From NCBI GenBank assembly GCA_017537405.1, contig JAFYKU010000056.1, positions 1 through 40,666 on the forward strand: 40,666 nucleotides of DNA, written 5' to 3'. A program made the position numbers and the translations under genes. The stretch is from Clostridia bacterium (lineage in GTDB: Bacteria; Bacillota; Clostridia; Christensenellales; UBA1242). Below, piece by piece: positions 825-16,549 of the stretch (the stretch's first letter is position 1; each line of letters begins with the position of its first letter). The notes beneath the pieces were generated by a model. The model saw nothing but the letters and a program-made list of their open reading frames with translations. It ran no database searches and was not told where the DNA came from.

Positions 825-1766
825 TTATTTTATTTTTCCTGCTTCCTGGATTAATAATTTCATTGCTGGAACCAATTCATTTAATACTTTTGGATTAGCC
901 CTAAGGCTTCTGATAAAATCTTCTTTTAAGTACGCAGAGTTAGTGTCAATGATTAAAGTTGTTTTCTTTTTTGTTTCTTTCTTCTCAATAGTGCGCAATA
1001 AAATTTCTTCCTCTTTAAATGCATGGTCTAAAAAGCTAAATTTTTTATTTTTTTTGCCATTCAATTTTTCACTTATCACACTGTTACCATATAAGTGATT
1101 TTGGTCTAGGTCATTTCTGTTTTCAATAAAAGATGAACAACCAACTGTATTTAAAGTTATTAAATCAATAGTCGTTGCTGTACCATTTCCTTCTAGGTTA
1201 ATTGATTTCGGCAAATCGTCCCAATTTAAAACTCGCCAAGAAATTTGTTTGTTTGTTTTTTTACCTGTATAAATATCAAACTCTTTACCAATTTTCATAC
1301 AATGACATTTTTTATGTTCATCTTCATATTCATATGGTAAATAATTATCATATTTTTCAACCAACGCTAAATAAGCCGCAAGGTCAACACGCATACACAA
1401 ACGCAACATGCGTATGGTATTCTTAAAATAATCATGAACACTTTCAATATCTGTTTTTTTCAGCGCAATCTTTTCAAAACAATAAACACCATCACGCATT
1501 ACGCGAATGGGAAGTTGATCGCCATCAACACCAACACAACCTTCCGCTTTTGAGCCCGAATAAATTTTCGTCAAAGCATCATTGCGCAACCAATAAGTGT
1601 TTAATGTTGGAATTTTATTATCGTATTCTTGTTTAACAATAAAATCTTTTGATGCAAAATTAAACTTTTCCTCAAGCTCTTCGTAGCTAGGCAAATATAT
1701 CCGATTTGTAACCTCACTATCACCAGAACCAACTTTTGTCGGTACAATAAAATCTCTTAATTCCAT
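825..1766 (-). CDS. DUF6273-like permuted paralog (shortest and most degenerate member, no ATPase)
   Basis: The N-terminal half carries IYLPSYEELE, YWLRNDA and LRLCMRVDLAAYLAL. The C-terminal half carries ISWRVLNWDDLPKSINLEGNGTATTIDL, a weakened LYGNSVISEKLNG and FLDHAFKEEE. A Shine-Dalgarno sequence (aaaaggat) lies upstream of the ATG. Confidence 0.8.
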   Translation of the reverse strand: MELRDFIVPTKVGSGDSEVTNRIYLPSYEELEEKFNFASKDFIVKQEYDNKIPTLNTYWLRNDALTKIYSGSKAEGCVGVDGDQLPIRVMRDGVYCFEKIALKKTDIESVHDYFKNTIRMLRLCMRVDLAAYLALVEKYDNYLPYEYEDEHKKCHCMKIGKEFDIYTGKKTNKQISWRVLNWDDLPKSINLEGNGTATTIDLITLNTVGCSSFIENRNDLDQNHLYGNSVISEKLNGKKNKKFSFLDHAFKEEEILLRTIEKKETKKKTTLIIDTNSAYLKEDFIRSLRANPKVLNELVPAMKLLIQEAGKIK

Positions 1767-1792
1767 ATGTTATCCTTTTAATTATTTTTCTC

Positions 1793-1822
1793 ATTTTAAC
1801 ATAATCACAAATCATTTTTCAA
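1793..1822 (-). promoter_or_regulatory. putative sigma-70 promoter of the 825-1766 paralog
   Basis: On the minus strand the -35 is TTGAAA (1817-1822). An 18-nt spacer follows, then an extended -10 TGtTAAAAT (-10 at 1793-1798). The -35 sits inside the conserved motif GACTCTTGAA. Confidence 0.5.
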
Positions 1823-1919
1823 GAGTCACAGCTTACTTTTTTTATTAATTTTTTAATTCTATCGTTTAAATGCAAATTTCCTTACCACTAAATCCAGTTT
1901 TGTGTATATTGGTTAAAAA

Positions 1920-3083
1920 TTAAAGTTGGTTTTCTTGGTTGGCATTAGTGATTTGTTCCGTATTTTGATAATTCTTAAAAACACTCGGATTCGCTTCAAT
2001 CGTCGGTATGAACTTTTTCTTTCCATAGAAACGAATAGCGCGGATATGTTCAATGAGACTATCCATAGCTTCGTTTATAAAATTTTGTTGTATAAAATTA
2101 CCACCACGCGGTGCACCGTAAACCTGTAAACCATTATGCTGAATATAATTAACATTATAGCCGTTTAAATAACCGCGTAATGTACTGTTTTGCCATAAAT
2201 GGTTGTGTTTATCTTCTGTGTTCGGATAAAAAGGAATTCCCGCTATAATCGCTGATTTCGTGCGTAATTTAATTGTATCTGCTTGGTTTGTACCTTTGGG
2301 GTTTAATGCCGTGGGCAAATCGTTCCAATTTTCAATTTCCCAAACAATCGGTTCAACCTTTACCCAATAACCATTGTTACCTCTGAAACCTTTATCAACA
2401 CGCACATACTTTTCGCCATCAATTTCATATTCGTCATATTGCGATAGACGCTGACGCTTATTATTATAGCGGCCAGTATAAGTTTTGCCGGTTGATTTTA
2501 AAATCCCATCTTCCCATTTTTTTTCTAACTCATAATTTATTTCATCACCTACATACGAAGTAGGGTATGTCCCCAAATTCATCTGACCTATACCCAAAGC
2601 AAAACAATTATTATGTTTGTTTTGTTTCGTTTGGTATTTTAAAACAGCCAAACATGCGTCAATTTCTAATTGCACACACGGACGAATTGCGTGTGGCAAA
2701 ATATTTTCTTTCATATTAACTGAATCAATCCGCCCAGACTCATCAATCACACTTACGCGGCGTAAATCATTGTCAAAAACATCTTGCTCCGCAGTACGCA
2801 GCCATGTACGGCAACCAACTCTTGATTTTGTTTGATTGATAGCCAGTTTTGCGTGTAAATCATTACGGTCTTCAAAATAAACTGCTTTGTTTAAAATCGC
2901 GTAATCTGTTGGAAAAGTTAAATTGGCTTTATCTCCTGATTTGTACTGAAACAAATGCATCGCAGCTTCATATTGCGAATCCAAATAAAAATAGTCATGA
3001 GTATCAAATCGATGATCAAACTCACAACCATAATTATCAGTATTACCTAAAGTCGTAATCGAAATTAAATCACAAAAATCCAT
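1920..3083 (-). CDS. DUF6273-like permuted paralog (no ATPase)
   Basis: Motifs are FYLDSQYEAA, TWLRTAEQ and IRPCVQLEIDACLAV. They are followed by PTGKTYTG...KYVRV...YWVKVEPIVWEIENWNDLPTALNP...IPFYPN...LWQNSTLRGYLNGYNV...NFINEAM. Confidence 0.85.
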   Translation of the reverse strand: MDFCDLISITTLGNTDNYGCEFDHRFDTHDYFYLDSQYEAAMHLFQYKSGDKANLTFPTDYAILNKAVYFEDRNDLHAKLAINQTKSRVGCRTWLRTAEQDVFDNDLRRVSVIDESGRIDSVNMKENILPHAIRPCVQLEIDACLAVLKYQTKQNKHNNCFALGIGQMNLGTYPTSYVGDEINYELEKKWEDGILKSTGKTYTGRYNNKRQRLSQYDEYEIDGEKYVRVDKGFRGNNGYWVKVEPIVWEIENWNDLPTALNPKGTNQADTIKLRTKSAIIAGIPFYPNTEDKHNHLWQNSTLRGYLNGYNVNYIQHNGLQVYGAPRGGNFIQQNFINEAMDSLIEHIRAIRFYGKKKFIPTIEANPSVFKNYQNTEQITNANQENQL

Positions 3084-3089
3084 TAAGAT

Positions 3090-3118
3090 AATTTATCAAA
3101 TTTTGCAATCAATTTCAA
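3090..3118 (-). promoter_or_regulatory. putative promoter of the 1920-3083 paralog, probably leaderless
   Basis: On the minus strand the -35 is TTGAAA (3113-3118). A 17-nt spacer precedes the -10 TAAATT (3090-3095). Only 6 nt separate the -10 from the ATG at 3083, and there is no Shine-Dalgarno sequence. Confidence 0.45.
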
Positions 3119-3134
3119 GTAGCGCCTTTTTTTA

Positions 3135-5261
3135 TCAGTTTTTTTCAAGACTTGGTTTTTCCGCTCTAACTTCTTGTTGTTTTAATTGCTTTAAAAAGAT
3201 TGCTTTTTCCGGGGTGTTTGCCCATGCTTCATCGAAAACCGCTAAAATTTCATGGTTGAATTCTTTATTAATAAATTGACGCACAGTAGCCACTTCATCC
3301 ATTTTCGCATAACGCCACATCATAGCCATCGCATATTGCATATCTAAATTATGGGGAATTTCGTGACGAGCATAATTACCACTGACGATGTCTTGTACCG
3401 TGAGGGCAGGTGTCTTTGCAAATGTCATAAATGTATCCGCTAACATCGGCCCAATTTTATTACGGATTAATTCTAAATAAATTGTATTACCGTTATCATA
3501 AATCATATCACTGATTTGTTGCCAACCACGCGGATCAATCTTATATTTAGGCGGATTATCCTGGTCATACTGTGGACAAAAACATTCCATACCAACCGAA
3601 GCCACAAAGGCCGCTACCAACGGGTGAATATTGAGACGACCTTGTTGCGCTTTATGGGGATCTTCATTAGGCTCGCTTGCCCATTCTAACCACTCCGGAA
3701 TGTTAGGCTTAATGTAAACATGACCGAAGAAACGACGCTCTAACGGTTCTGCCATTTGATAAGCGGCTAAACTTTCTTCTAAACTGTTACCCGCCGCCAC
3801 GACCGATACATTGGCTGGCAACTTACCAATATTTGGACCAATTGAGTGTTCCAAAATAATATGAAATACTGCAGATTGTTCTTGCTCGCGCACATTCGTA
3901 ATCTCATCAATAAACAACACATGTTGCTTGTTTGGCTCTTGCGCGCACTTTTCACACAAATCGTTATACCATGCTGGTGCCTGCCATTGAGCAGAGTTCA
4001 CATTCTTTTCATCAAGAAAAATATTCTTACCAATAATTTCTTCCGGCAACATTCCATTGCGTAAAGTAATAGAAACAAAGTCGGGATCAATTTTTTTCAC
4101 ACGATGTGATTTACCAATCCCACTGGGACCATGTAACATCACCGTGTGTCCGTTTTGGATATATTTTTGTAATTGCTCATTAATCGACAAAGGTTTTTCT
4201 TGGATTTTAATTCCCCAACCCAACCGAGCTTTTTGATAAATATCAATTGTTTTTAACAACTCAATTTCGCGTGTAAATGCTTGTTGGATAAAATTATAAT
4301 GCGTAAAATCGCCACCACACGGAGCAGTGTAATCAGTATTTCCATTTTCTTTAATGTTATTAACATTAATACCGTTCAAAAATCCACGCAGCGAACTATT
4401 TTGCCACAAGTTATTATTATCATCAGTAAGATTTGGATAAAAAGGAATTCCCGCCATTAATACATATTTTGACGCTAAATCTAAACATACTGCGGTACCG
4501 CTACCTTGCGGATTAATCGAAGTTGGTAAATCTTTCCAATTTTCAATTTCCCAAACCAAAGGCACAACTTCTACCCAATAACCATCATTGCGTGGTCCTT
4601 TATTCACCCGCACATAGCGTTTACCATTAACTTCGTATTCAAAATAATAATTTGGTTTGTCATTTTTTTTATCAAAACAACCAGTGTAAGTTTTCCCCGT
4701 CGGAACAATCACGCGATGTTCCAAAGCTTCTTCTAGTTGTTTGTTAAATTTATCGCCAACATATTTTTGCGGGTACTCACCAAACAGCAAAACACCGTTT
4801 TGACCTTCAACATGCTGAACACTTAAAGTCTGTTGGTCATCTTTTTGATTCTTGTCCAACCAACTTCGCACTTTCAAAAATTCTAACAAATCCATGCGCG
4901 TGCGCGGAGATATACCTTGCGATAAATTTCTTTCACTTGGTGTGACAAAAAATTTTTTACCTGCTTCATTGCGAATACAAACACGACCAATCCCTAAACC
5001 ATCTTGTCCACCTGTTCGCAACCAAACACGGCAAGACGGAAACTTACCCAAAACTTCAGGATTAAAATTTTCATCTTTCGTATTTAATGCTTTATTTAAA
5101 ATTGCAAAATCTGTGGCTTGCGTTAATTGTGGGTCATCATAATCTCCCTCAATAAAAAACATATCACGCGTATTAAAATCTTGGCTTCCCCAATATCCAC
5201 TTAAATCCGTATTTAATAAAACCTTGGGGTTTAACAAATCATTAATTAACATACCATCCAA
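3135..5261 (-). CDS. DUF6273-like permuted head fused to a C-terminal MoxR/AAA_5-like AAA+ ATPase
   Basis: The head (about 4190-5261) carries VWLRTGGQ, GISPRTRMDLLEF, VWEIENWKDLPTSINPQGSGTA, LWQNSSLRGFLNG and NFIQQAF. In the ATPase, Walker A GPSGIGKS is at 4107-4130 and Walker B VLFIDEI at 3900-3920. Sensor-1 is VVAAGN and the Arg-finger region is EPLERRF. A lid-like C-terminus follows. Confidence 0.9.
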   Translation of the reverse strand: MDGMLINDLLNPKVLLNTDLSGYWGSQDFNTRDMFFIEGDYDDPQLTQATDFAILNKALNTKDENFNPEVLGKFPSCRVWLRTGGQDGLGIGRVCIRNEAGKKFFVTPSERNLSQGISPRTRMDLLEFLKVRSWLDKNQKDDQQTLSVQHVEGQNGVLLFGEYPQKYVGDKFNKQLEEALEHRVIVPTGKTYTGCFDKKNDKPNYYFEYEVNGKRYVRVNKGPRNDGYWVEVVPLVWEIENWKDLPTSINPQGSGTAVCLDLASKYVLMAGIPFYPNLTDDNNNLWQNSSLRGFLNGINVNNIKENGNTDYTAPCGGDFTHYNFIQQAFTREIELLKTIDIYQKARLGWGIKIQEKPLSINEQLQKYIQNGHTVMLHGPSGIGKSHRVKKIDPDFVSITLRNGMLPEEIIGKNIFLDEKNVNSAQWQAPAWYNDLCEKCAQEPNKQHVLFIDEITNVREQEQSAVFHIILEHSIGPNIGKLPANVSVVAAGNSLEESLAAYQMAEPLERRFFGHVYIKPNIPEWLEWASEPNEDPHKAQQGRLNIHPLVAAFVASVGMECFCPQYDQDNPPKYKIDPRGWQQISDMIYDNGNTIYLELIRNKIGPMLADTFMTFAKTPALTVQDIVSGNYARHEIPHNLDMQYAMAMMWRYAKMDEVATVRQFINKEFNHEILAVFDEAWANTPEKAIFLKQLKQQEVRAEKPSLEKN

Positions 5262-5316
5262 TCCTTTCTTTATAGATTAACATTTCAATCACTCAAATTC
5301 AAGAGTCAAACCAAGT

Positions 5317-7308
5317 TTATTTTTCTAATTCAGATTTTATGTTTTTTACTACCAAAGCTCGCGCTCCATCATAAACGGATAAAATTTCCTCACCAAATTC
5401 CCGGCTAATAAATTCACGAATCACTGGAACTTGTTCTGGTTTCGCATAACGCCACGCCATGGCTAAAATATATTGCTGGTCAAACTTGCGTGGTATTTCA
5501 ATTTGTGAATAATTTTTGTTCACAATATCTTCTGCCGTCAGTGGTGGGTTCTTCGCAAACGCCACCAAAGCATTTGTCAATAACGGTCCGATTTTATTCG
5601 CGATGATTTCTTTGTAAATCATGCCACCGTTATCATAAATTAAATCACTCACTTGTTCCCAAGCGCGTGGGTCAATTTTATAATTATATTTCTTGGTATC
5701 ATCTGGGTCTGGCTGCGGACAGAAGACTGCATCTCTCATGGAAGCCACGAAAGCCGTCACTAATGGATGCACATTTAAATGTCCTTTATCTTCGTTCATA
5801 CGATTGGCCCAATCTAACCAATCCATGATGTTGGGTTCAAAATAAATGTGACCATAAAATCTTCGCTCTAACGGTTCCGCTATTTGATAAGCTGCCGTAC
5901 TTTTTTCCATACTATTACCCGCCGCCACAATGGAAACATTGTCTGGTAATTTGCCGCAGTTTGGCGTCACCGAACGATCTAATACAATATGAAACACCGC
6001 AGATTGTTCTTGTTCACGCACATTAGTTAATTCATCAATAAATAAAATATGGCGCTTGTGCGGTTCTTTGGCACATTTTTCACATAAATCTGTATACCAC
6101 GCTGGTGCTTGCCATTGTGCCGATTTTACATCTTTTTCATTAATAAAAATATTTTTGCCAATAATCTCTTCCGGCAACATTCCATTGCGCAAAGTTAATG
6201 AAACATAGTTTGGGTCAATTTCTTGCACGCGCCGCGATTTACCAATTCCACTGGGACCATGTAACATCACAGGATGTCCATGTTCAATATATTTGCGTAA
6301 CTGCTCGGTTTCATTTAAAGATTGTTGACTTAAATTCACACCCCAACCTTTGCGATTAATTTTATTTTGACATTCAATGGTTTGCAATAATTCTTTTTCT
6401 TTTGTAAAGGCTTCATCGATAAAATTGTGTTCAGTAAAATTACCAGCGTTCAACATCGACAAATCATAACCATTTAAATAACCACGCAGGGTACTATTTT
6501 GCCATAGCGTCTTATTATTTTTAAATTTAAACTTTGCCGGATCAAAATTACTCGTACGATAAAATGGAATACCAAAATTAATAACATTGCGCGTGATTAG
6601 CTTAATTGTTTGCGCTTTGCCATTTCCTTGTGCATTAATTTCGCGCGGCAGCTCGTGCCAATTCGTGACAATCCAAGCCAACGGTTTATTAGCTAAATAA
6701 TAGATTCGATTATTTGTGGCAACCTTGACATATTTTTGGCCATCTAATTCACGCTCAGAACACAAAACAGGTTGCCCAATAATTTTATCAAAAGCTAACA
6801 GATATTTACGATTTGTCTTCACTAAACGGTCTTTTTCATTTTCAAAATTCCTATCGCCGTTCACCACAACTTGCGGATATTCACCAAAATCCAATAATAT
6901 GTAATCATGTTCTTTATCTTCAGGGTCTCGATAAAAAGCGTATCTTTCATCATCATGACGCTTTTTCATAGCTTCTTGTAAATCTAAATAAGCATTAATG
7001 TCTAAATTCATGCACGGACGCAAACCAATATTTATATCATCATAAAAAGCTGAACGCAGTCCATAATTTACATCATAATAATTAATTTTATCCGTTTCAA
7101 ACGCCGCACGGTCCCGCGTCCAAAAAGAACCATTTTTCTCAAAACCTTGCGGATTATTTTTAAACCCAATTTCAGCTAAACCAACCGTTTTAATATCAAA
7201 TAAAATACTCTGCGCAATTTCATTTGTGGACGGTAAAAAAATGCGATCACTGATTTTTGCATCTTCTAAATTTGTCGAGACAATAATATCTTCTAAACGC
7301 ATACTCAT
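5317..7308 (-). CDS. DUF6273-like permuted head fused to a C-terminal MoxR/AAA_5-like AAA+ ATPase (second copy)
   Basis: The head carries RIFLPSTNEIAQ, FWTRDRA, GLRPCMNLDINAYLDL, LAWIVTNWHELPREINAQGNGKA, LWQNSTLRGYLNGYDL and NFIDEAF. In the ATPase, Walker A GPSGIGKS is at 6235-6258. It also has ILFIDELT, IVAAGN and EPLERRF. This half is very similar to the ATPase half of 3135-5261. Confidence 0.9.
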   Translation of the reverse strand: MSMRLEDIIVSTNLEDAKISDRIFLPSTNEIAQSILFDIKTVGLAEIGFKNNPQGFEKNGSFWTRDRAAFETDKINYYDVNYGLRSAFYDDINIGLRPCMNLDINAYLDLQEAMKKRHDDERYAFYRDPEDKEHDYILLDFGEYPQVVVNGDRNFENEKDRLVKTNRKYLLAFDKIIGQPVLCSERELDGQKYVKVATNNRIYYLANKPLAWIVTNWHELPREINAQGNGKAQTIKLITRNVINFGIPFYRTSNFDPAKFKFKNNKTLWQNSTLRGYLNGYDLSMLNAGNFTEHNFIDEAFTKEKELLQTIECQNKINRKGWGVNLSQQSLNETEQLRKYIEHGHPVMLHGPSGIGKSRRVQEIDPNYVSLTLRNGMLPEEIIGKNIFINEKDVKSAQWQAPAWYTDLCEKCAKEPHKRHILFIDELTNVREQEQSAVFHIVLDRSVTPNCGKLPDNVSIVAAGNSMEKSTAAYQIAEPLERRFYGHIYFEPNIMDWLDWANRMNEDKGHLNVHPLVTAFVASMRDAVFCPQPDPDDTKKYNYKIDPRAWEQVSDLIYDNGGMIYKEIIANKIGPLLTNALVAFAKNPPLTAEDIVNKNYSQIEIPRKFDQQYILAMAWRYAKPEQVPVIREFISREFGEEILSVYDGARALVVKNIKSELEK

Positions 7309-7319
7309 TTTTCATAAAC

Positions 7320-7349
7320 AGCATACCACTGATAACCCAACATTTTCAA
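7320..7349 (-). promoter_or_regulatory. putative promoter of the 5317-7308 gene
   Basis: On the minus strand the -35 is TTGAAA (7344-7349) inside the motif AACTCTTGAAAA. An 18-nt spacer precedes an extended -10 TGgTATGCT (-10 at 7320-7325). Confidence 0.4.
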
Positions 7350-7360
7350 GAGTTATCAAA

Positions 7361-7771
7361 TTATTCCGCTTGATAAAGCAAACAAAAATCTTTAATTACT
7401 GGGGATACATTATCAATCTGTTTCGCTGTTACAATGATTTGCGTTTCTTGCGGGAAAGCGAAACCATTTAAACCTTTATATTTTAAGATGCCACAAAACT
7501 TTGCTTGTTCACTGAATGGCAAAGCATCAATCCCATCGATACAAAGTAAAATTTTCTTTTTGGCGTGTGCTTTCATCATCAAAGTTAATAACCACTTCGG
7601 ATGTTGATAACCTTTATCTTGCGGAATAATACCCAATTCCGCTGACGGAGTAGTGGCAGGAAGCACAACAGCATCCGGAAAATTTTTCGCTGACACGCCG
7701 CCAATCACAAATGGCTGACTAGTTAGTTTAGTTAAAATATCACGGATAACTTTTTGCGATGCTTGTGTCAT
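7361..7771 (-). CDS. small degenerate AAA+ core remnant with no functional Walker A/B, translationally coupled to the upstream paralog
   Basis: It aligns by eye to the ATPase cores of the two fusions. VIGGVSAKN stands in place of LHGPSGIGKS. ILLCIDGIDALPFSEQAKF stands in place of VLFIDEITNVREQEQSAVF. IIVTAK stands in place of VVAAGN. It ends before the Arg-finger and lid. An ATGA start/stop overlap with the 7768-8952 gene lies at 7768-7771. Confidence 0.65.
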   Translation of the reverse strand: MTQASQKVIRDILTKLTSQPFVIGGVSAKNFPDAVVLPATTPSAELGIIPQDKGYQHPKWLLTLMMKAHAKKKILLCIDGIDALPFSEQAKFCGILKYKGLNGFAFPQETQIIVTAKQIDNVSPVIKDFCLLYQAE

Positions 7772-8952
7772 AATGATTTTCCTATTTCGGTTGCTTTTGA
7801 ATTCATTTTTAATGCGTTTTGTTTGATTGGGCGTTGTCGCGATTTTTTATTATCTTTTAATAAATTAATTTCTTGAATTAAACCCTTGACGCGTCCCATT
7901 GCTTCATTTAAAAAATTATGGTCTTTAAAATTTCCACCACACAAGGCAATGTGTTCAAGGTTTCTAATATTACGATTTTCAATACTGCGCAAATCATAAC
8001 CATTTAAATAACCACGCAATGAACTGTTTACCCATAAATTTGCATCAGGGTGGTTTTGATTAATATTAAAAGGAATACCACCGATAATTGCTTTTTGCGC
8101 GCGAAGTTTAATTACGGCAGCGGTGCCGTTACCTTCCGGATTAATCTCTTTGGGTAAATCAGACCAATTTTCAATATCCCAAAGAATTGGCTCTACATCA
8201 AACCAATAACCAACACTAGGGTTATCACAACCATATCGCACCATTTTAATAGGCCAGGGAAGATTGTATTCATATTCCACACCTTCACTAAATTTTCCCG
8301 TACTAGCATCATAACTACCAATAAAAGTTTTACCCGTTGGAATTAAATCACCAGCTCTTACTTGTTCTTCTTTTTCCTCATCACAATAATTGTAATTAAT
8401 TTCTTGATAAAAAGTTGTATTACGGCAGGAATGTGATTGGGGAAATTCTCCCAATTTCATTAATGGACCATTCCATTTTGAATCTTTACAAATCTGAAAT
8501 TCTGAACCCCAATAACCAATACGATCTAAACCTTTTCTGATTTGCAAAAAGGTTGGTATATCTAAAGATAAACAAGGACGAACTCCAATATTTTCTCCAT
8601 TTTCGTGTGAAGTTGAATATTTCATTTCACCTTCCGCATCAACAAGCGCAACTTGATTTTCATGATTAGAACGAAGATAATAATTACACGCTGATTTCAT
8701 TCCAGAAACTTTATTTTCCATTAATTTCCAATTCAAATCACCATGTCCTTTGTAAGGTATGGCATGATTAATCAAAGCATACGAGGTTGGGAAACATCGA
8801 TTTAAACTACTTTCTTCTGACGCATGGGCTTCAAACTCAGGGATTGATTCCACAAAAACTCGGTCTTGCGTATCCCAAGCAGAGTTACCAATACAACCAT
8901 ATGGTGTTGTGTTACTTAAATTTGTTTCAATAATTAAATTAGATAATTCCAT
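7768..8952 (-). CDS. DUF6273-like permuted paralog (no ATPase)
   Basis: Motifs are YYLRSNH, GVRPCLSLDIPTFLQI, PTGKTFIG, ILWDIENWSDLPKEINPEGNGTA, LWVNSSLRGYLNGYDL and NFLNEAM. I chose the start at the internal MELSNLIIETNL (8952). It matches the N-termini of the sibling genes and has the Shine-Dalgarno sequence AAGGAatttgatATG. The ORF track extends to 9009. Confidence 0.8.
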   Translation of the reverse strand: MELSNLIIETNLSNTTPYGCIGNSAWDTQDRVFVESIPEFEAHASEESSLNRCFPTSYALINHAIPYKGHGDLNWKLMENKVSGMKSACNYYLRSNHENQVALVDAEGEMKYSTSHENGENIGVRPCLSLDIPTFLQIRKGLDRIGYWGSEFQICKDSKWNGPLMKLGEFPQSHSCRNTTFYQEINYNYCDEEKEEQVRAGDLIPTGKTFIGSYDASTGKFSEGVEYEYNLPWPIKMVRYGCDNPSVGYWFDVEPILWDIENWSDLPKEINPEGNGTAAVIKLRAQKAIIGGIPFNINQNHPDANLWVNSSLRGYLNGYDLRSIENRNIRNLEHIALCGGNFKDHNFLNEAMGRVKGLIQEINLLKDNKKSRQRPIKQNALKMNSKATEIGKSL

Positions 8953-9037
8953 ATCAAATTCCTTAATATAGCATAAGCTCTTAATTTTCAATTTGCAATA
9001 CCCATTCAAAAAAAACTTTTATGAAATATTTTTCTGT

Positions 9038-10168
9038 TTAAATAATTTGATTATGTGTTTGGCTTGTTTGGTTAATTTTTAAACCTTGTCCATGATTAAT
9101 AACAATTCTTAATTTTTTTGGTTGTTGTTTATTTTTGATATCAATATCTCGAATCAATTCTTTTTCTTCTGCAAAAGCTTCGTTAATAAAATTTTGTTGA
9201 CTGAATTGATAATTATTACCCACCGCATAACGCGTGTTGATGTTCTTTTTTAACTGCTTCAAATCATATCCATTGAGGTACGCACGAATCGGACTGTTTT
9301 GCCATAAATGAGCATTGATTTCTTCGTGTGGGAAAAAGGGTATTCCTGCATTAACCACATAACTACAAACCAATTCAATATATTGTGCTGTTCCGTTTCC
9401 GTTTGGATTAATCGATTGCGGTAAATCATCCCAATTTAAAATATCCCATTCTAATGGTTCAACAGTAAACCAATAACTTTCTTTTTGTGTATCAAGATTG
9501 ACACGAACATAACGCGTATTGGTCAAATTTGAAACATATTCAGCATGGCGAATCGGTTTATTATTTTCACCAACAAAACAACCCAGATAAAACTTTCCTG
9601 TGGGAACTAAAAAACCATCATGCCTTAAATTTTCCAATTGCCAAGTATCACTTTCATCTAAAAGAGTTTTTGGATAATCACCCATTAAAAATGATTTAAT
9701 CAAAAAATCATTTTGAATCTTAAACTTTTCTGTATCTTGTTTTGTTTTAAAAAATTTATCTTGCACGGCTAAGAAAGCATCAATATCCATTTTTATTTGT
9801 GGGCAAATACCTTGTCCTAAATCGCGTTGCCATGGTTTTTGTAATTTGAACTCACTTTTCTCTAAATAACTATTGGGCTTACTACAATCTTCTACATTAA
9901 AAGTAAAAACTTTTTTTTCATCTTTTAAATCAACACCAGAACAAGTCCACATGTTCACAATTGAATTAGTATAAACCGTTTTTGTTTGTTGGTTATTTGC
10001 TATCCGAGCATTAATTCTTGCATAACCACTTGTATACCTTTTTTGATAAAAATCAACCTGTTTTAAAATATCTTCACGAGATGGCAGATAAAACATATCG
10101 GTCGTAACAAAGTGTTTATTTGTTGTGTTGTTTAATTTTACAGGAACGATTAATTCAGATATTTGCAT
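9038..10168 (-). CDS. DUF6273-like permuted paralog (no ATPase)
   Basis: Motifs are MFYLPSREDIL, GICPQIKMDIDAFLAV, PTGKFYLG...RYVRV...YWFTVEPLEWDILNWDDLPQSINPNGNGTA, LWQNSPIRAYLNGYDL and NFINEAF. The Shine-Dalgarno sequence is aagaggt. Confidence 0.85.
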   Translation of the reverse strand: MQISELIVPVKLNNTTNKHFVTTDMFYLPSREDILKQVDFYQKRYTSGYARINARIANNQQTKTVYTNSIVNMWTCSGVDLKDEKKVFTFNVEDCSKPNSYLEKSEFKLQKPWQRDLGQGICPQIKMDIDAFLAVQDKFFKTKQDTEKFKIQNDFLIKSFLMGDYPKTLLDESDTWQLENLRHDGFLVPTGKFYLGCFVGENNKPIRHAEYVSNLTNTRYVRVNLDTQKESYWFTVEPLEWDILNWDDLPQSINPNGNGTAQYIELVCSYVVNAGIPFFPHEEINAHLWQNSPIRAYLNGYDLKQLKKNINTRYAVGNNYQFSQQNFINEAFAEEKELIRDIDIKNKQQPKKLRIVINHGQGLKINQTSQTHNQII

Positions 10169-10178
10169 ATTACCTCTT

Positions 10179-10208
10179 ATTATATTATATTCAACCCACT
10201 AAATTCAA
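10179..10208 (-). promoter_or_regulatory. putative promoter of the 9038-10168 paralog
   Basis: On the minus strand the -35 is TTGAAT (10203-10208) inside the motif GGTCTTGAAT. An 18-nt spacer precedes the -10 TATAAT (10179-10184). The Shine-Dalgarno sequence AAGAGG follows. Confidence 0.5.
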
Positions 10209-10219
10209 GACCCAAATTT

Positions 10220-11527
10220 TTAACGCGTATAACCAAGGTCATCATTTTGATGTGATTGGCTTTCCTTAAACATTTGACGGATTTCATAAGGATCTACTTT
10301 TAAAACTTTTCCGCAACATGGAGTGAACTCAATATCACGCCAAACCAACCAAAATAAATTTTTAATTCTTCGGTTTTCTTCTTTATCGGTAACAACATCT
10401 AAGCCATCGGTAAAAATAATTTTATAAACATTTTGCATACGGTCTTTTGAAAAATGAGCAAGTGCTTCATCGAAACTGGTTCCGCCACGCCCTACAATTT
10501 GAAATTGGTCAATATCTGACACTTTTTTAATACTTTGAAATCCATAAAATTGGGTATCAAAACAACCAACCTTTAGCTCGGCATTACGCACTAGATTTTT
10601 AATCTCCCTTAAAAAACCACGCAACAAATTATCATCAACAGAGCCACTGGTATCCAACATGACTTCCACCAAAGCTTTGTCTTCACGATATTTATATTCA
10701 ACGCGTGGTTGCCAATCATTGTTGCGGTCAGCTCTGCGGTAAGACCAATAGGCTTGTTCTAATTCCTTAAATTTTCGTCTCAAAACTTTTTGCCAATTTT
10801 CAATCGGCTGCGCTTCACCAACAACTCCTAAATCAGTTTTCATAGCACCTTGATTTTCACCATGCGCCATACCTTTTTCAGCTTTCAAATCTTCCATGAT
10901 TTTTCGCGCCAATTTTTGTTTCAATTTTTCATTAACCTGTGTGAACTGTTTTTCGCGAGCATTGGATGATTCGTCTTTGGTTGTTTGTGTTTGATTATCG
11001 CTTTGTTCTTGTTCCAATCGTTTTAAGGCTGCTTCCCACAATTCATGGTTACCAACAGACATTTCTCCTGTGTTTTGATGCTTATCATGACCAGTGTCAT
11101 TTTGCGACTCTTCTTTGAATTGGTCTTTATGCATTAATATATATTCGTACATTTCTTCCGCTGATTTTCCGCGTGCATTAGGAAGATTAATTCCACCTTG
11201 GGGTAGTGGTAACCCTGCATCGATAATCATTTGATTAATCACAGCATCAGTGGCAATGTTCCAATAATATAAAATACGATTTTTACTACGGACAATATGA
11301 TCAAAAGCCACATGCATCACTTCATGCGCAAATAAAGCTATTTTTTCTTCAAAACTTAACTTCTCTAAAAATGAAGGTGATACCCGTACATTATTACCGT
11401 TCGTATCTGCCGTTTCTGTTTTATCTGTAACTTCAAAAACTAATTTTTGCATTACAGGCCCTAATAGCGGAAATTTACTTAATACGCCATTTTTCACTTC
11501 TTTTAAAGCTTGTACTTGCATCATCAT
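10220..11527 (-). CDS. VWA (MIDAS) domain protein with an N-terminal HExxH putative metallopeptidase domain (DUF2201_N + DUF2201/VWA-like architecture)
   Basis: HEVMH is at 11312-11326 within FAHEVMHVAFDH. The MIDAS-like DTSGS is at 10640-10654 within VMLDTSGSVDD. A Gln/Glu/Lys-rich linker lies between the two. It is the first gene of the paralog array and on the same strand. Confidence 0.8.
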   Translation of the reverse strand: MMMQVQALKEVKNGVLSKFPLLGPVMQKLVFEVTDKTETADTNGNNVRVSPSFLEKLSFEEKIALFAHEVMHVAFDHIVRSKNRILYYWNIATDAVINQMIIDAGLPLPQGGINLPNARGKSAEEMYEYILMHKDQFKEESQNDTGHDKHQNTGEMSVGNHELWEAALKRLEQEQSDNQTQTTKDESSNAREKQFTQVNEKLKQKLARKIMEDLKAEKGMAHGENQGAMKTDLGVVGEAQPIENWQKVLRRKFKELEQAYWSYRRADRNNDWQPRVEYKYREDKALVEVMLDTSGSVDDNLLRGFLREIKNLVRNAELKVGCFDTQFYGFQSIKKVSDIDQFQIVGRGGTSFDEALAHFSKDRMQNVYKIIFTDGLDVVTDKEENRRIKNLFWLVWRDIEFTPCCGKVLKVDPYEIRQMFKESQSHQNDDLGYTR

Positions 11528-11570
11528 GAGTAGTGTACACTAATCAATTCCGCATTGTAAATACATGACC

Positions 11571-12401
11571 TTATTTTTCGATTGGCATTGCCGCTTTAAT
11601 GCGTAAATATTCTTGCAAAATTTCAGTTATCGTCGCATTGTTATAAACATTGTGTTTGTCTTTAAAAACCAAATCTGTCTGCCATTGCTTTACTGTTTTT
11701 AATCGAATATACGGAAAGAAACGCCACGAAGCACAATAATGACGAATCACCGTATCGCGATTAATTCGGCGTTGGCGATTATAACGCGGATGCAAAATCA
11801 TTTTTTTCACAGCACATTTATTTAACGCTGTTTGGTCAGATAAAAATAAGTTTTTTTCGATACACATCTGACGCGCCTTTTCCATTAAATGTGTGGCGCG
11901 AATTTGTGGCATATTCATCAACAAAACACCCGAGTTGCAATAATTCCAACCAAAAAACCAATGCCCAAAATAATCACGGCAAGCTGCGTATTCATAATCT
12001 TTTAAATCAATCGCAAATAATTCGGTTAACGAACTTAATATTAAAACATCTGTATCTAAATATAAAATCTTGTCGGGAAGATCGGGAATTTCATTTGCGT
12101 AAAGACGCAACATCGCGTAAGGCGTAAATCGCTCACCACAGGTTAAGTCACCGTCTTTGCGGAAATTCTCAGTTAAATCAACTATACGACAAGAACTTTC
12201 TGTGTTAACGGTATGTAAAACATCTTCCAAAACTTTGCGTTGCATTTCACTGACTGGCAAAAATTTCGGATTATCCTCCGTTAAATCCATCGTTAAAATT
12301 ATAATGTTAATTGGTTCTGGATTATATTTCACTAACGAAATTACCGAACTCAACATCCCGTCAAACGCCGCAGCATTACCGGCATACATGATGTGATACA
12401 T
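11571..12401 (-). CDS. glycosyltransferase family 8-like protein
   Basis: The N-terminus YAGNAAAFDGMLSSVISL resembles GT8. The DxD motif appears as LYLDTDVLIL, and NSGVLLMN is also present. Confidence 0.65.
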   Translation of the reverse strand: MYHIMYAGNAAAFDGMLSSVISLVKYNPEPINIIILTMDLTEDNPKFLPVSEMQRKVLEDVLHTVNTESSCRIVDLTENFRKDGDLTCGERFTPYAMLRLYANEIPDLPDKILYLDTDVLILSSLTELFAIDLKDYEYAACRDYFGHWFFGWNYCNSGVLLMNMPQIRATHLMEKARQMCIEKNLFLSDQTALNKCAVKKMILHPRYNRQRRINRDTVIRHYCASWRFFPYIRLKTVKQWQTDLVFKDKHNVYNNATITEILQEYLRIKAAMPIEK

Positions 12402-12403
12402 TT

Positions 12404-13186
12404 TTAATCATTCTCCTTTTTGCGATAAATAATTTTTTGATAATTACTCATTTGGCTTCTAGCTACCATTTGTGCATAAATACGGTCGCGTAAGTCTTGG
12501 ATTTGCGTTTTGTGATCCAATTCGCGATTCGGATAAAAAGGTCCGTCTACATAAGTCACAATTTTAATTTTGTTTTTATGTTTATGATAAGTATTTGTAA
12601 AACAAAACGCTGGCACATTATATTTTACAGGATAACGAAACGAAGTCGCCACAAATGGACGGATACCAGTATAGTATGGCCAGATATGTGCTTCGGGGTA
12701 AATTAAGATTGGTTTTTTATCAGCTACAATATCATCAATCGCTTTGATAAATTTTTTTGTATTTACCATATCGGGTAAAATTGGTAACGCCCCCAAACGC
12801 CTTGCTAACCAACCAATCCCTGGTAAAGTAATATTACTTTCGTTGACAATCACATAACTATCTTTAGGAGCAATAATTTTACACATCGCAGCATCAAAGA
12901 AATTTTGCGTATGATTACCATATATAAAGTAACTAGATTTTTTAACTTGTTTGAAAGCTTTCTTGTTTACAATTTTCCAACGAAAACGAAACTTCGCATG
13001 ACACCAAGCGACAGGGGTACCAATCATACGGCACCAAAAGAAATGATGTAATTTATAAAAAGGATTACGGCGGTAATATGTGTAAGGACGCCCCCAAGAC
13101 TTTGTAGATTTAGTTTCACTGAAATCATCATTTAATTCATCACAATATTCAATTACTTGCGGTTCGTCTTGAATTGATGTTTTCAT
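12404..13186 (-). CDS. putative acyltransferase (PlsC/LPLAT-like)
   Basis: YGNHTQNFFDA is an HX4-5D-like motif, and IYPEAHIWP is a PEG-like motif. The assignment is tentative. Confidence 0.45.
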   Translation of the reverse strand: MKTSIQDEPQVIEYCDELNDDFSETKSTKSWGRPYTYYRRNPFYKLHHFFWCRMIGTPVAWCHAKFRFRWKIVNKKAFKQVKKSSYFIYGNHTQNFFDAAMCKIIAPKDSYVIVNESNITLPGIGWLARRLGALPILPDMVNTKKFIKAIDDIVADKKPILIYPEAHIWPYYTGIRPFVATSFRYPVKYNVPAFCFTNTYHKHKNKIKIVTYVDGPFYPNRELDHKTQIQDLRDRIYAQMVARSQMSNYQKIIYRKKEND

Positions 13187-13279
13187 GTTTTAATTATATA
13201 ATACCAATCTTTATTTGTAAAATTTTTACCCATTAAAAAAACTACAAAAAAAATTGTTGAAAAATTTTGTGTGAACTAC

Positions 13280-13307
13280 TTGATTTTATGTGGCGGTATG
13301 TTAAAAT
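13280..13307 (+). promoter_or_regulatory. sigma-70 promoter of the 13337 gene
   Basis: The -35 is TTGATT (13280-13285). A 16-nt spacer precedes an extended -10 TGtTAAAAT (-10 at 13302-13307). The Shine-Dalgarno sequence aaggggga lies before the ATG at 13337. Confidence 0.6.
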
Positions 13308-13336
13308 ATAAACAAATAAAAAAGGGGGACAATTAA

Positions 13337-14725
13337 ATGAACACATTTAAAAAAATCGGGCTCTTTTTCTGTATCGGAATCATCGGGGTAGTCTTCGGTG
13401 TTGTAGCAGCGATGCAATGGCACAACCTTGGAGCAGCGGATACTACCGCACATAAGCATCCATTGACCAAAGTTACTGGTCATGCGGCAACCTGCCAAGA
13501 AACAGGTATCAAAGATTACTGGGAATGCCCAGATTGCGCAAAGTATTTTGCGGACGCTGAAGGTTTGGTAGAAATGACATCTACTGAATTAGCAAATTGG
13601 AAAGTGATTAAAAAAGCTCATCACGAAACCAATGAACATCACCATGTAGCAGAAATTAAAGCAAACTGCGCACACGATGGTAATATCGAATATTACACTT
13701 GTATATATTGCGGCGATTATTTCGATGACGCAAATTGCAAAATACCGGTTAGTAACGATTTTATCAAATACAATAAAACTAACAATCATGAAATCATTTT
13801 TGTAAAAGCAACTACTGCAAAATGTAATCAACCAGGTATGGCAGCACACTATGAATGTCAAGTTTGCGGACAAAAATACACAGACAAAAACGGTGAAACA
13901 ACCACTACTGCGGAAGCATTGGTAATTACTGTCGAACACGAATTAATACCAGTAGCAGCAGTTGAAGCAACTTGTACCACAGAAGGAAATATTGCACACC
14001 ATCATTGTACTGAATGTGAACAAAACTTCAAAAATGAACAAGCTTTGAATCCAATTGATGTTACTGTTGGTAAACTTAATCACGAAATTGAATATGTTGA
14101 AGCTACACCTGCAACTTGTGAAACCGCTGGTAACCACGCATATTATCATTGCAGTGAATGTGACGGAAAATTCACAGATGAAGCTTGCACAAAAATAATT
14201 ACCGATTATGTTATCAATGCATTAGGACATAATCATGTAGCAGTTGAAAATAAAACAAAATCAACTAACCGTTACTTATATTTCGAAAACATTTGTAACC
14301 GTGATGGATGTAACCATTTTAATGGTGAATTCAAAAGAACTTTATTTGCTGAAAACAATGTAAATTTAAACAAAAATCTCGAGCTTTTTGTAAGCAATGA
14401 TGAACATATAGAAATAACTATTAAAGACGAAAATAATGAAGAAAAAACAATACTTAAATATTTCGATTTATACAGATTAGATTGGAATAACAGTCAAAAC
14501 AATGGTCAAACCGTTAAAATCAATTTGGTAATTCCAGATATCTACGATAGCGAAAATGCGCAATATAGCTATAATGGTGACATTGTAAAAGGAATTCTTA
14601 CAACATTAGAAATTAATCTTGATGATGTAAAAAAGAATAACGACTTAGAATGGTATTTTGATTGGAACGGTGATGGAATCTTTGAACAAACAATCCGCAT
14701 TCATGTAGAAAACTTTAATGCGTAA
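13337..14725 (+). CDS. membrane-anchored protein with tandem His/Cys3 repeats and a C-terminal non-repeat domain
   Basis: The N-terminal transmembrane or signal-anchor segment is IGLFFCIGIIGVVFGVVAAM. Five full repeats follow the pattern H-x(6-9)-(A/T)-x-C-x3-G-x4-(Y/H)-x-C-x2-C-x3-(F/Y)-x-D, and one degenerate repeat follows them. Confidence 0.85.
   Translation: MNTFKKIGLFFCIGIIGVVFGVVAAMQWHNLGAADTTAHKHPLTKVTGHAATCQETGIKDYWECPDCAKYFADAEGLVEMTSTELANWKVIKKAHHETNEHHHVAEIKANCAHDGNIEYYTCIYCGDYFDDANCKIPVSNDFIKYNKTNNHEIIFVKATTAKCNQPGMAAHYECQVCGQKYTDKNGETTTTAEALVITVEHELIPVAAVEATCTTEGNIAHHHCTECEQNFKNEQALNPIDVTVGKLNHEIEYVEATPATCETAGNHAYYHCSECDGKFTDEACTKIITDYVINALGHNHVAVENKTKSTNRYLYFENICNRDGCNHFNGEFKRTLFAENNVNLNKNLELFVSNDEHIEITIKDENNEEKTILKYFDLYRLDWNNSQNNGQTVKINLVIPDIYDSENAQYSYNGDIVKGILTTLEINLDDVKKNNDLEWYFDWNGDGIFEQTIRIHVENFNA
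13451..14326 (+). repeat. coding tandem repeats (about 45-50 aa units, 5 full plus 1 degenerate) with a conserved H...C...C-x2-C pattern
   Basis: The units are GHAATCQETGIKDYWECPDCAKYFAD, EIKANCAHDGNIEYYTCIYCGDYFDD, ATTAKCNQPGMAAHYECQVCGQKYTD, VEATCTTEGNIAHHHCTECEQNFKN and TPATCETAGNHAYYHCSECDGKFTD. The degenerate unit is ENICNRDGCNHFNGEF. Confidence 0.8.
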
Positions 14726-14742
14726 TTAATCAATCAAAAATA

Positions 14743-14773
14743 AAACCCGGGGCAGTGCGTTCCGGGTTTTTTG
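14743..14773 (+). terminator. rho-independent terminator after the 13337-14725 gene
   Basis: The stem aaacccgg (14743-14750) pairs with ccgggttt (14762-14769). A T-run extends to 14772. Confidence 0.75.
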
Positions 14774-14781
14774 TTATAAAA

Positions 14782-14810
14782 AAAACGCACCACTCGGGTA
14801 CGCTTTTTTT
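14782..14810 (-). terminator. probable terminator of pyk (imperfect hairpin flanked by A8 and T7, possibly bidirectional)
   Basis: cgcacc (14786-14791) pairs with ggtacg (14797-14802) with one mismatch. On the minus strand a T8 run follows. Confidence 0.45.
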
Positions 14811-14823
14811 AATTTCGATTGGC

Positions 14824-15858
14824 TTATTTACCGTATTTTTGGCTCCAAGCTTCGTTTGCAATCTTACGCATATATTGAATGGTTTCAATTGGGAATTCAC
14901 CCATAGCTGTTTCTTCCGAAGTCATAACTGCATCAGTACCATCATATACTGCATTTGCAACATCTGAAGTTTCGGCACGGCTTGGGCGTGGTTTTTGCAT
15001 CATATTCAACATCATTTCGGTTGCAACAACTACAAATTTATTTGCGGCGTTACATTTTTTAATAATGATTTTTTGAACAGTTGGCAATTTTTCTAATGGA
15101 TATTCAACACCCAAGTCACCACGAGCAACCATAATACCGTCTGCTTCAGCAATAATTTCATCTAAATTTTCAACGGCTTGTACACTTTCAATTTTTGCGA
15201 TAATTGGAGTATTACCTGTGATTTTACGCATTTCACGGATATCTTCAGCTTTATTTACAAATGAAGCTGCAATTAAATCAACTTTTTGTTCAACACCAAA
15301 TTTCAAATCTTCAACATCTTCTGGACGCAAGAATTGTAAATGAACATCAACACCAGGAACAGCCATACTTTTTTTGTCAGCCATTTTACCACTGTTTTCA
15401 ATTTTTACAACGATTTCTTTATTTTCAGCTTTAACTTCTTGAACTTTAGAAATAATTAAACCATTACAAATTAAAATGGTATCACCAGTTTTTACATATT
15501 TATATAAATCTGGGTGAGAAATAGCAACACCTTGTTGGTTACCAATACGATCATCTTGATCGCAATACAAAGAGAAAATATCTCCTGGGTTTACCATAAT
15601 ACTTCCGTTTTCAAATGTGCGTAAACGGATATCTGGTCCTTTGGTATCCAACATAATTTTAATGTCTTTACCAAATTTTTCATTAACTTCGCGAATGCGA
15701 GCGAATTTGCGGCCATGTTCTTCGTGGCTGCCATGGCTGAAGTTACAACGGGCAATGTTCATGCCTGCGTCAGCCAAACCTTTGATTTTATCTACTTCTT
15801 CAGTCGCAGGACCGATGGTGCAGATAATTTTGATTTCCTTTTTATTTGTGCTTTCCAT
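14824..15858 (-). CDS. pyk: pyruvate kinase, short form lacking the C-terminal domain
   Basis: Motifs are IICTIGPA, ARCNFSHG, MLDTKGPDIRL, KIES, MVARGDLGVE, ATEMMLNMMQKPRPSRAETSDVANAVYDGTDAVM and SEETAMGEFP. The protein ends about 24 aa after the last motif, at 344 aa. Confidence 0.9.
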   Translation of the reverse strand: MESTNKKEIKIICTIGPATEEVDKIKGLADAGMNIARCNFSHGSHEEHGRKFARIREVNEKFGKDIKIMLDTKGPDIRLRTFENGSIMVNPGDIFSLYCDQDDRIGNQQGVAISHPDLYKYVKTGDTILICNGLIISKVQEVKAENKEIVVKIENSGKMADKKSMAVPGVDVHLQFLRPEDVEDLKFGVEQKVDLIAASFVNKAEDIREMRKITGNTPIIAKIESVQAVENLDEIIAEADGIMVARGDLGVEYPLEKLPTVQKIIIKKCNAANKFVVVATEMMLNMMQKPRPSRAETSDVANAVYDGTDAVMTSEETAMGEFPIETIQYMRKIANEAWSQKYGK

Positions 15859-15862
15859 AACC

Positions 15863-16417: not shown

Positions 16418-16484
16418 AAATTATCTTATTATGGTTTTTGCTTTTCGTCAAACTAACAAGGAACCCACAATTTTATCCCTTTGA

Positions 16485-16515: not shown

Positions 16516-16549
16516 TTCAAAAAACTCACCAACACACAACACAAGTTAT

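Follow-up and report, generated by a model that had tools for sequence, protein, structure and literature searches.

An expanded head-ATPase and metallopeptidase-VWA array in a Clostridia bacterium is a retroelement-free copy of a three-component operon found in two gut phyla

The window analysed here is the whole of contig JAFYKU010000056.1 (40,666 nucleotides) of the Clostridia bacterium assembly GCA_017537405.1, and it carries eight consecutive intact open reading frames (ORFs) on its minus strand between positions 825 and 11,527. This array is an expanded and rearranged copy, free of any diversity-generating retroelement (DGR), of a three-component cytoplasmic system designated HA-S-V. In this designation V is a protein that combines an HExxH domain (DUF2201_N) with a VWA domain (DUF2201), HA is a head domain fused to an AAA+ ATPase, and S is a fragment of 136 amino acids (aa), while a head that occurs free is called H. 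Six paralogous heads are encoded in the window, two of them on ATPases (HA663 and HA708) and four of them free (H376, H394, H387, and H313), and the order read 5' to 3' on the minus strand is V-H-H-S-HA-HA-H-H. According to the ORF listing, neighbouring genes are spaced by 28-153 nucleotides (nt), apart from one 4-nt overlap (7768-7771). The locus is chromosomal, lying about 10 kb from dnaA-dnaN with serS, glyS, gmk, and pyk as neighbours, and the NCBI protein records from this contig, which belongs to a metagenome-assembled genome, are MBR4418795-802. Neither a hydrophobic membrane-spanning segment nor a signal-like N-terminus occurs in any of the eight products. Much of this layout had been anticipated by a sequence-only reading of the window, which described eight consecutive same-strand genes, a first gene encoding an HExxH protein with the VWA metal-ion-dependent adhesion site (MIDAS), six diversified paralogs sharing N- and C-terminal blocks, two complete MoxR-class AAA+ modules among them, and a cytoplasmic look without signal peptides. 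All these points are confirmed by the ORFs, the Pfam matches, the head alignment, the motif locations, and the structural model reported here.

The starts of two genes deserve comment. The ORF at 7768-9009 has a mechanical TTG start at 9009 and a length of 413 aa, and the sequence makes an ATG start at 8952 most likely, which would give 394 aa; the NCBI product MBR4418800.1 has exactly this length. As for HA708, its 708-aa form with a TTG start is absent from the protein collection, so that translation probably starts at an ATG located a few codons further on. Promoter and terminator scans of the locus were uninformative.

The V protein matches DUF2201_N (3e-27, 96.3 bits) and DUF2201 (2e-11, 44.4 bits), in both cases above the Pfam threshold, and its match to the phage family phrog_1314 reaches 2e-63. 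Among 56 members of the family, the residues H68/E69/H72, H77, and D94 as well as the MIDAS residues D292/S294/S296/D374 are 100% conserved. Thus, the peptidase and the MIDAS activities are both predicted to be intact. Sequence searches of the PDB with HA and V yielded nothing useful, the only HA match being 2r44 at an E value of 0.008.

Both HA663 and HA708 carry GPSGIGKS (Walker A), (V/I)LFIDE (Walker B), AAGN, and ERRF. Their ATPase modules are 64% identical, compared with 37% for the heads that precede them. Across 99 homologs, the core motifs (Walker A, Walker B, sensor 1, and the arginine motif) are invariant or at least 90% conserved; in HA708, residues G378, G381, G383, K384, and D452 belong to the invariant ones and E453 is conserved to at least 90%. 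The phage ATPase family phrog_1297 is matched at 2.4e-37 by HA663 and at 8e-37 by HA708. The Pfam matches lie just below threshold, with 19.3-20.3 bits for AAA_5 (cut-off 22) and 17.7-22 bits for AAA_3 (cut-off 27), Sigma54 likewise being below; the AAA_5 threshold is passed by some of the homologs. The AlphaFold2 (AF2) model of HA708 has a pLDDT of 88, with more than 90 in the head and a disordered linker. When this model is searched against the PDB with Foldseek, the top matches are the MoxR proteins CbbQ (6l1q, 5e-9) and NorQ, including NorQ-NorD VWA complexes (9qh4-9qhg, 2.5e-8), at a probability of 1.0 and a TM(target) of 0.56-0.64, and McrB and dynein come next. Sequence identity of the module to CbbQ and NorQ is only 11-17%. 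On the strength of the model, the HA ATPase is predicted to be MoxR-like, with MoxR members as its nearest relatives within the helix-2-insert clade.

The six heads align over all the shared blocks at pairwise identities of 31-46%, and the free heads retain the linker helix NF-x-x-EAF-x-x-E-x-ELL. The cut-off of the DUF6273 profile (PF19789, 23.5 bits) is exceeded by HA663 (33.7 bits, 4.2e-8) and H394 (36.3 bits, 6.5e-9), H387 (20 bits) and H376 (19 bits) remain below it, and the scan gives no match for HA708 or H313. With the halves left as they occur in nature, profile positions of about 46-171 are matched by the N-terminal part and positions 27-69 by the C-terminal part of the head. When the two halves are artificially swapped, a single colinear match to positions 24-171 of 172 results and the E value of the HA663 head improves from 4.2e-8 to 3.3e-11; H376 treated in the same way gives a colinear match to positions 27-150. 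Since colinearity appears only after the swap, the head is a circularly permuted DUF6273 domain. The sequence-only reading was therefore right in calling the heads DUF6273-type, and its assignment is amended here by the permutation. A head-only AF2 model, made for H387, is confident. DUF6273 has been assigned a C-type-lectin-like fold (PMC10743442; bioRxiv 10.1101/2024.10.15.618418) and is also the N-terminal domain of the IgA protease ThomasA (PMC12402451).

The small protein S has no P-loop, and it shows DG where the Walker-B DE is expected. As a family profile, its residues 55-115 align to the W-P-WY...Walker-B...sensor-1 stretch of the ATPase (hhalign probability 70%, E 4e-5). Searches in Pfam and the PDB returned sub-significant matches only, mostly to P-loop families, those in the PDB being of the RFC/AAA type. 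From its sequence, S is plausibly a degenerate AAA+ core; the description of this gene as a dead ATPase core in the earlier reading finds only moderate support.

A scan of one genome per species (185,579 species) gave 129 relatives, from which 78 loci were kept; their ORFs were called and then searched with the window proteins, and individual loci are cited below by number. More than 120 homologs of the 708-aa protein reach E < 1e-108, most of them being full-length and 650-850 aa long. Moreover, an all-library HMMER search with the ATPase module returned 206 clusters at 50% identity (E <= 1e-30), nearly all with an N-terminal extension of 250-450 aa. All 78 loci come from metagenome-assembled genomes (MAGs) of uncultured bacteria from animal guts (human, mouse, rabbit, ruminant, and others), 48 of them labelled Clostridia, Clostridiales, Eubacteriales, Christensenella, or Lachnospiraceae (three only "bacterium") and 30 labelled Alphaproteobacteria, Azospirillum, or Proteobacteria. 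The genes HA, S, and V follow each other on one strand and in this order in 51 of the 78 loci, namely in 27 of the 30 alphaproteobacterial and 24 of the 48 Clostridia loci. The co-occurrence of ATPase and VWA-HExxH genes that had been proposed from the window thus extends to two phyla, and it includes S. In these canonical operons the S homologs measure about 125-160 aa, and the 4-nt overlap between the H394 stop and the S start in the window has its counterpart there at the end of HA. The remaining loci are orphan HA genes, and at least 10 Clostridia genomes contain two or more HA loci. The nearest syntenic relatives of the window (L001, L007, L011, and L032) have the order HA-S-V-H, while the expanded order is confined to the window, L005 (95% identity), and L006 (68%). 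Given HA-S-V elsewhere, the position of V at the head of the array, which the sequence-only reading had stressed and which is true of the window, is a local rearrangement of this lineage.

Two further observations concern the distribution and the build of these relatives. The HA-S-V operon is common to MAGs of gut Clostridia and gut Alphaproteobacteria at 35-45% identity, and no other habitat appeared in the scan, which points to cross-phylum transfer within the gut. Additionally, some ATPase homologs (L074 at 9944-19200, L068, L069, L081, L052, L067, and L071) bear alternative N-terminal regions of 300-550 aa that have no DUF6273 or other Pfam match. In L074, two such alternative-head ATPase genes stand in tandem with an S-like gene after each. 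Judged from these sequences, the ATPase seems to accept alternative heads.

The relatives also reveal how the head is varied. Clustering of 1,400 flanking ORFs from the 78 loci returned DGR genes and generic neighbours (ABC transporters, glycosyltransferases, an HU-like protein, and GNAT). The DGR genes form two families that lie immediately upstream of HA in 16 loci. The first, which is near 350 aa in length and shows the motifs IPLGNQTSQWF and YMDDF, is a reverse transcriptase (RT; RVT_1, 4e-19), and the second, of about 200 aa, has a bAvd-like match at 3.7e-5. All 16 loci possess a template repeat (TR) between the Avd-like gene and the RT gene and a cognate variable repeat (VR) in the 5' part of HA. 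The TR/VR alignment extends over 96-119 nt in 14 of them; in the other two, the ungapped alignment covers only 39 nt (L060) and 75 nt (L078). Template adenines account for 273 of the 340 TR/VR mismatches, and most of the non-adenine mismatches stem from two loci where an indel shifted the ungapped alignment. The number of adenines is 26-38 in 15 TRs and 11 in the short L060 segment. The VR starts right after the W-(L/S)-(R/A)-S codons and ends at R-P-(A)-L, so it coincides with the "WLR...RPC...LD" block that had been picked out in the window beforehand; for instance, the VR of L078 covers aa 81-106, equivalent to aa 83-117 of HA708. A fixed difference marks the 3' boundary, where every VR ends in ...CCCGCTTTGC and the TR has ...CCCGATTTGC. 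Among loci with enough upstream sequence, a DGR is found in 14 of 25 alphaproteobacterial versus 2 of 39 Clostridia loci, and Clostridia instead hold several HA or H copies per genome. The DGR-bearing loci are L026, L028, L030, L031, L034, L036, L037, L038, L042, L051, L054, L059, L060, L065, L078, and L080, and the element of L031 is included in Table 1.

Table 1. Positions of the array genes and their motifs in the window, and of the DGR of one relative (last four rows, numbered within locus L031).
Feature	Positions	Strand	Description	Basis
V	10220..11527	-	HExxH metallopeptidase-like (DUF2201_N) and MIDAS VWA (DUF2201), 435 aa	Pfam, phrog_1314
HEVMH of V	11312..11326	-	zinc-binding motif, aa 68-72	motif location, family-invariant
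DTSGS of V	10640..10654	-	MIDAS, aa 292-296	motif location, family-invariant
H376	9038..10168	-	free head, permuted DUF6273-like, 376 aa	head alignment, DUF6273 after re-permutation
H394	7768..8952	-	free head, likely ATG start 8952	DUF6273 6.5e-9
S	7361..7771	-	136 aa, degenerate AAA+-core-like	profile-profile match to ATPase family
HA663	5317..7308	-	663 aa; head aa 1 to ~312, MoxR-like AAA+ aa ~320-663	DUF6273, phrog_1297
Walker A of HA663	6235..6258	-	GPSGIGKS	motif location
Walker B of HA663	6031..6048	-	ILFIDE	motif location
VR-equivalent of HA663 head	7021..7113	-	aa 66-96, between WTR and RPC	position versus DGR VR of relatives
HA708	3135..5261	-	708 aa; head aa 1-340, linker aa 342-351, MoxR-like AAA+ with helical C-terminal domain aa 352-700	AF2, Foldseek, phrog_1297
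Walker A of HA708	4107..4130	-	GPSGIGKS	motif location
Walker B of HA708	3903..3920	-	VLFIDE	motif location
VR-equivalent of HA708 head	4911..5015	-	aa 83-117, between WLRT and SPR; beta-hairpins in model	
H387	1920..3083	-	free head, 387 aa; nearest is HA708 head (44% identity)	AF2 pLDDT 88.4, pTM 0.87
H313	825..1766	-	most divergent free head, 313 aa; ortholog of the head after V in L001, L007, L011, L032	
L031 Avd-like gene	7564-8157			
L031 TR	8197-8315			
L031 RT gene	8571-9620			
L031 VR	9823-9941		within HA	

A conserved engine with rapidly diverging heads had also been seen in the window by the sequence-only reading, and this picture is borne out by the DGR, which hypermutates the head in relatives, and by the locus itself, which diverges far faster than its flanks. 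DnaA, DnaN, SerS, GlyS, Gmk, and Pyk of L001, L007, and L032 are 89-94% identical to those of the window, whereas in the same genomes HA is 43-51%, V 52-56%, S 48-53%, and the heads 30-46% identical. Furthermore, the six window heads vary in length across the VR-equivalent segment. All eight ORFs are full-length in L005 and L006, and the ratio of nonsynonymous to synonymous substitution rates (dN/dS) of the eight genes is 0.0-0.6 against L005 and 0.07-0.30 against L006. Values for the heads (0.30-0.48 for H376) exceed those of the neighbouring glycosyltransferase family 8 (GT8) and acyltransferase genes, while S is 100% identical in L005 and has a dN/dS of 0.07 against L006. H313 is 81% identical to its L005 counterpart and the other genes are 91-100% identical. 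These ratios indicate purifying selection on all eight genes, which are thus not pseudogenes.

On balance, HA-S-V is considered somewhat likely to be a conflict, anti-phage, or surveillance system that recognises variable, probably foreign ligands and then remodels or cleaves them. The head would set what the system binds; in relatives the DGR rewrites about 110-119 nt of it, and in the window six diverged germline heads would meet the same need. HA is envisaged as a hexameric ring displaying its heads, which would capture a variable ligand, most likely a foreign one from a phage or mobile element. The VWA domain may mediate docking of V on this ring, in the manner of NorD with NorQ and CbbO with CbbQ. 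ATP-driven remodelling would then either present the ligand to the HExxH peptidase or activate the peptidase, and the outcome would be neutralisation of the ligand or a proteolytic signal. As a presumably inactive paralog of the ring subunit, S probably modulates or caps ring assembly, and free heads may exchange onto the complex or serve as decoys. Ring formation, docking of V, the nature of the ligand, and the defence role are all predictions. A narrower form of this scheme is put forward only tentatively. It would make HA-S-V an intracellular, antibody-like capture-and-destroy system in which hypervariable heads bind phage proteins and hand them over to the ring-docked V for remodelling and cleavage. 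The heads would then owe their repertoire to either of two routes, which are somatic-style hypermutation by the DGR, chiefly among gut Alphaproteobacteria, and arrays of germline paralogs of the kind seen in the window.

Several points weigh against a conflict or surveillance role. The characterised MoxR-VWA pairs are chaperones or maturases, and function is deduced for every member of the system from sequences and models. No RT, TR, or TR/VR pair is present within the 40.7-kb window, which was searched through candidate ORFs of at least 100 aa (excluding those nested in or antisense to longer ones) and direct repeats. Members of the clusters at more than 90% identity lack VR-focused variation, their variants being evenly spread, and in the comparison with L006 only some paralogs diverge more in the VR-equivalent segment than elsewhere. 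Ongoing hypermutation in the window lineage is ruled out on these grounds. The head model has no significant Foldseek match in the PDB, with the C-type-lectin fold not recovered, and in BFVD it finds only a weak match to a phage DUF6273 protein; the permutation probably defeats the order-dependent search. Recurrent defence-gene neighbours are absent among the clustered flanking genes, and a classical toxic effector is missing from the eight proteins, the only enzyme besides the ATPase being the HExxH domain. In PADLOC-DB 2.0, the eight proteins have no meaningful match, only PDC-S01 appearing at 15 bits (E 0.0016) in the P-loop region. Additionally, the locus of this clade occupies a fixed chromosomal site near oriC beside housekeeping genes and is not an obvious mobile island. 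Finally, the homologous phage pair, a head-less ATPase (A) with a V of the same architecture, has been proposed to act as chaperone and cochaperone in virion assembly (PMC7824862).

The phage proposal, together with CbbQ and NorQ as the nearest structures and a syntenic chromosomal site beside housekeeping genes in this clade, would suit a dedicated chaperone or maturase comparable to CbbQ-CbbO, NorQ-NorD, or the phage pair, in which HA-S-V remodels or processes endogenous clients with one head as adaptor for each client. Such a role is nevertheless judged unlikely, because a fixed client does not need hypermutation of its adaptor by a DGR, and because identities of 43-56% next to flanks of about 90% and a variable copy number with orphan HA genes fit it poorly. 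Moreover, the clustered flanking ORFs contain no conserved candidate gene for a linked client. The heads might also sense small molecules, glycans, or peptides of the gut for a cytoplasmic sensor without any conflict role, whose ATPase and peptidase pass the signal on, for instance through cleavage of a regulator. Metallopeptidases related to repressor-cleaving HExxH regulators do exist, and all hosts are gut organisms. The lectin-type fold assigned to DUF6273 (PMC10743442; bioRxiv 10.1101/2024.10.15.618418) would be in keeping with such sensing as well. However, the loci and flanking ORFs examined show no conserved DNA-binding or transcription-factor partner in the operon, and hypermutation at about 30-38 template adenines is a commoner feature of arms-race recognition than of metabolite sensing, so that a pure sensor appears quite improbable.

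The array could further be taken for a remnant of a prophage or mobile element, or for a set of decaying paralogs without function. Gut phages commonly carry DUF6273 domains and DGRs, both phrog_1297 (matched by the ATPase) and phrog_1314 (matched by V) are phage families, and the left end of the window is AT-rich. Against this stand eight intact ORFs that remain full-length in L005 and L006 at a dN/dS of 0.07-0.6, a neighbourhood composed of dnaA-dnaN-serS-glyS-gmk-pyk, and the failure to find integrase, capsid, or tail genes nearby in the window. The IMG/VR scan, in addition, gave only distant head-less A-V pairs at 24-40% identity, and a remnant can hardly be upheld. Phage origin as such is ruled against by the same scan, as it holds only those distant, head-less pairs, with no S between A and V.

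Among described systems, the closest in logic are the MoxR-vWA conflict systems with attached DGR-diversified C-type-lectin sensors (Kaur et al. 2020 eLife, PMC7159879; Dore et al. 2024 PNAS, PMC10907252), whose DGR acts on an FGS/C-lectin domain that the vWA protein carries as a fusion (PMC7159879, PMC10907252). Like these VMAP ternary systems, HA-S-V comprises a MoxR AAA+ protein, a vWA protein, and a third component, and it shares with them a variable module that is DGR-diversified in relatives and belongs to a family assigned a C-type-lectin fold, predicted cytoplasmic targets, and short lectin-only proteins beside longer ones. The differences are considerable. The lectin-like module is of the circularly permuted DUF6273 type and sits on the N-terminus of the ATPase, whereas in the VMAP systems it is attached C-terminally to the vWA protein. 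Here the vWA partner has an N-terminal HExxH domain (DUF2201_N), V carrying DUF2201_N and DUF2201 only, and as third component S takes the place of a VMAP that bears trypsin, caspase, TIR, or EAD domains; the Pfam scan of the eight proteins detected no VMAP or effector family. Furthermore, VMAP systems are hosted by cyanobacteria, actinobacteria, and purple sulfur bacteria, in contrast to small-genome gut MAGs not known to be multicellular, and the window copy relies on paralog multiplication with no DGR.

The phage MoxR AAA+ and metallopeptidase-vWA pair of the N4 gp24-like type, for which Iyer et al. 2021 (PMC7824862) proposed a chaperone role in assembly, belongs to the same ATPase subfamily (phrog_1297, 1e-37) and has the same V architecture of an N-terminal HExxH and a VWA domain (phrog_1314, 2e-63). 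The A and V genes lie near each other in phages, as in HA-S-V, although the reference phage GAP31 has a MoxR gene without an adjacent V. The phage ATPases are head-less and show 22-28% identity to the window in reference phage genomes and 24-40% in IMG/VR contigs, and S was not detected between A and V in the phage and IMG/VR pairs examined. To our knowledge, the phage pair has no link to a DGR. The pairs CbbQ-CbbO (Rubisco activase) and NorQ-NorD (cNOR maturation) also have a partner with a MIDAS VWA domain and offer a model for VWA docking on a hexamer; unlike HA-S-V, they serve one fixed client, lack both a variable head and S, and carry no peptidase domain on their VWA protein. The heads themselves resemble the DUF6273 DGR targets of gut phages, which are tentaclins and Mtd-like proteins (PMC10743442; bioRxiv 10.1101/2024.10.15.618418), and ThomasA (PMC12402451), in belonging to the same domain family, in being a ligand-binding module, and in the position of the VR in a WWLRS...GVRPA-type segment. 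Those proteins are virion-borne or secreted and have the canonical domain order with the VR at the C-terminal end of the domain, whereas the HA heads are permuted with the VR half first, cytoplasmic, and fused to an ATPase. The statement of the sequence-only reading that no system of this kind is described holds for the exact architecture, which was not found in the literature, PADLOC, or NCBIfam, and needs qualification in view of the precedents in PMC7159879, PMC10907252, and PMC7824862. A comparison with defence catalogues had likewise been suggested, and PADLOC-DB 2.0 contains no matching system. A scan of the eight proteins against NCBIfam gave nothing meaningful. What is new is the link to the DGR, the fusion of a permuted head to a motor, and the contrast that two gut phyla show between a DGR and a paralog array.

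The role of cellular (non-phage) DGRs is a long-standing open question. A DGR target fused to a motor ATPase and accompanied by a protease-VWA partner in two phyla provides a compact case that suggests a pathway from recognition to action. The combination of DGR and MoxR-vWA, thought to be enriched in multicellular bacteria, is here met in small-genome gut commensals, and a single protein family displays hypermutation and paralog expansion as two alternative repertoire strategies. If the capture-and-destroy reading were true, cellular DGRs would gain a direct functional readout in gut bacteria for which no multicellularity is known; a defensive role, if real, would make the system an additional type for the phage ecology of the gut microbiome. 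Moreover, HA might offer a programmable scaffold of binder plus unfoldase.

The surroundings of the array contain several further genes. Directly upstream of V and on the same strand lie a GT8 glycosyltransferase gene and an acyltransferase gene (11571-13186, minus strand), which are kept in L005, L006, and L007, absent in L001 and L032, and have a dN/dS of 0.02-0.13. They are probably unrelated neighbours and not parts of the system. Next, on the plus strand (13337-14725), a 462-aa protein is encoded that has an N-terminal membrane anchor, about six Cys-rich repeats (H..ATC..G...Y.EC..C.KYF.D), and no Pfam family. It is a conserved neighbour in L005, L006, L007, L011, and L032 and diverges equally fast, with 37-39% identity where housekeeping proteins reach about 90% and a dN/dS of 0.3-0.6. 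The AT-rich left end of the window (positions 1-2000) has 28% GC compared with 33-44% elsewhere, and it includes a plus-strand ORF of 229 aa (3-692) without a family match. Between dnaA and dnaN, a minus-strand gene of 143 aa (21160-21591) has a weak, sub-threshold match to the ADP-ribose glycohydrolase 2CompARG, and L001 has a 142-aa gene at the same position. Finally, the pyruvate kinase (14824-15858, minus strand; 344 aa) consists of the barrel only and lacks the C-terminal regulatory domain; the relatives possess a similarly short form (340 aa), and this barrel-only enzyme is consistent with a reduced genome.

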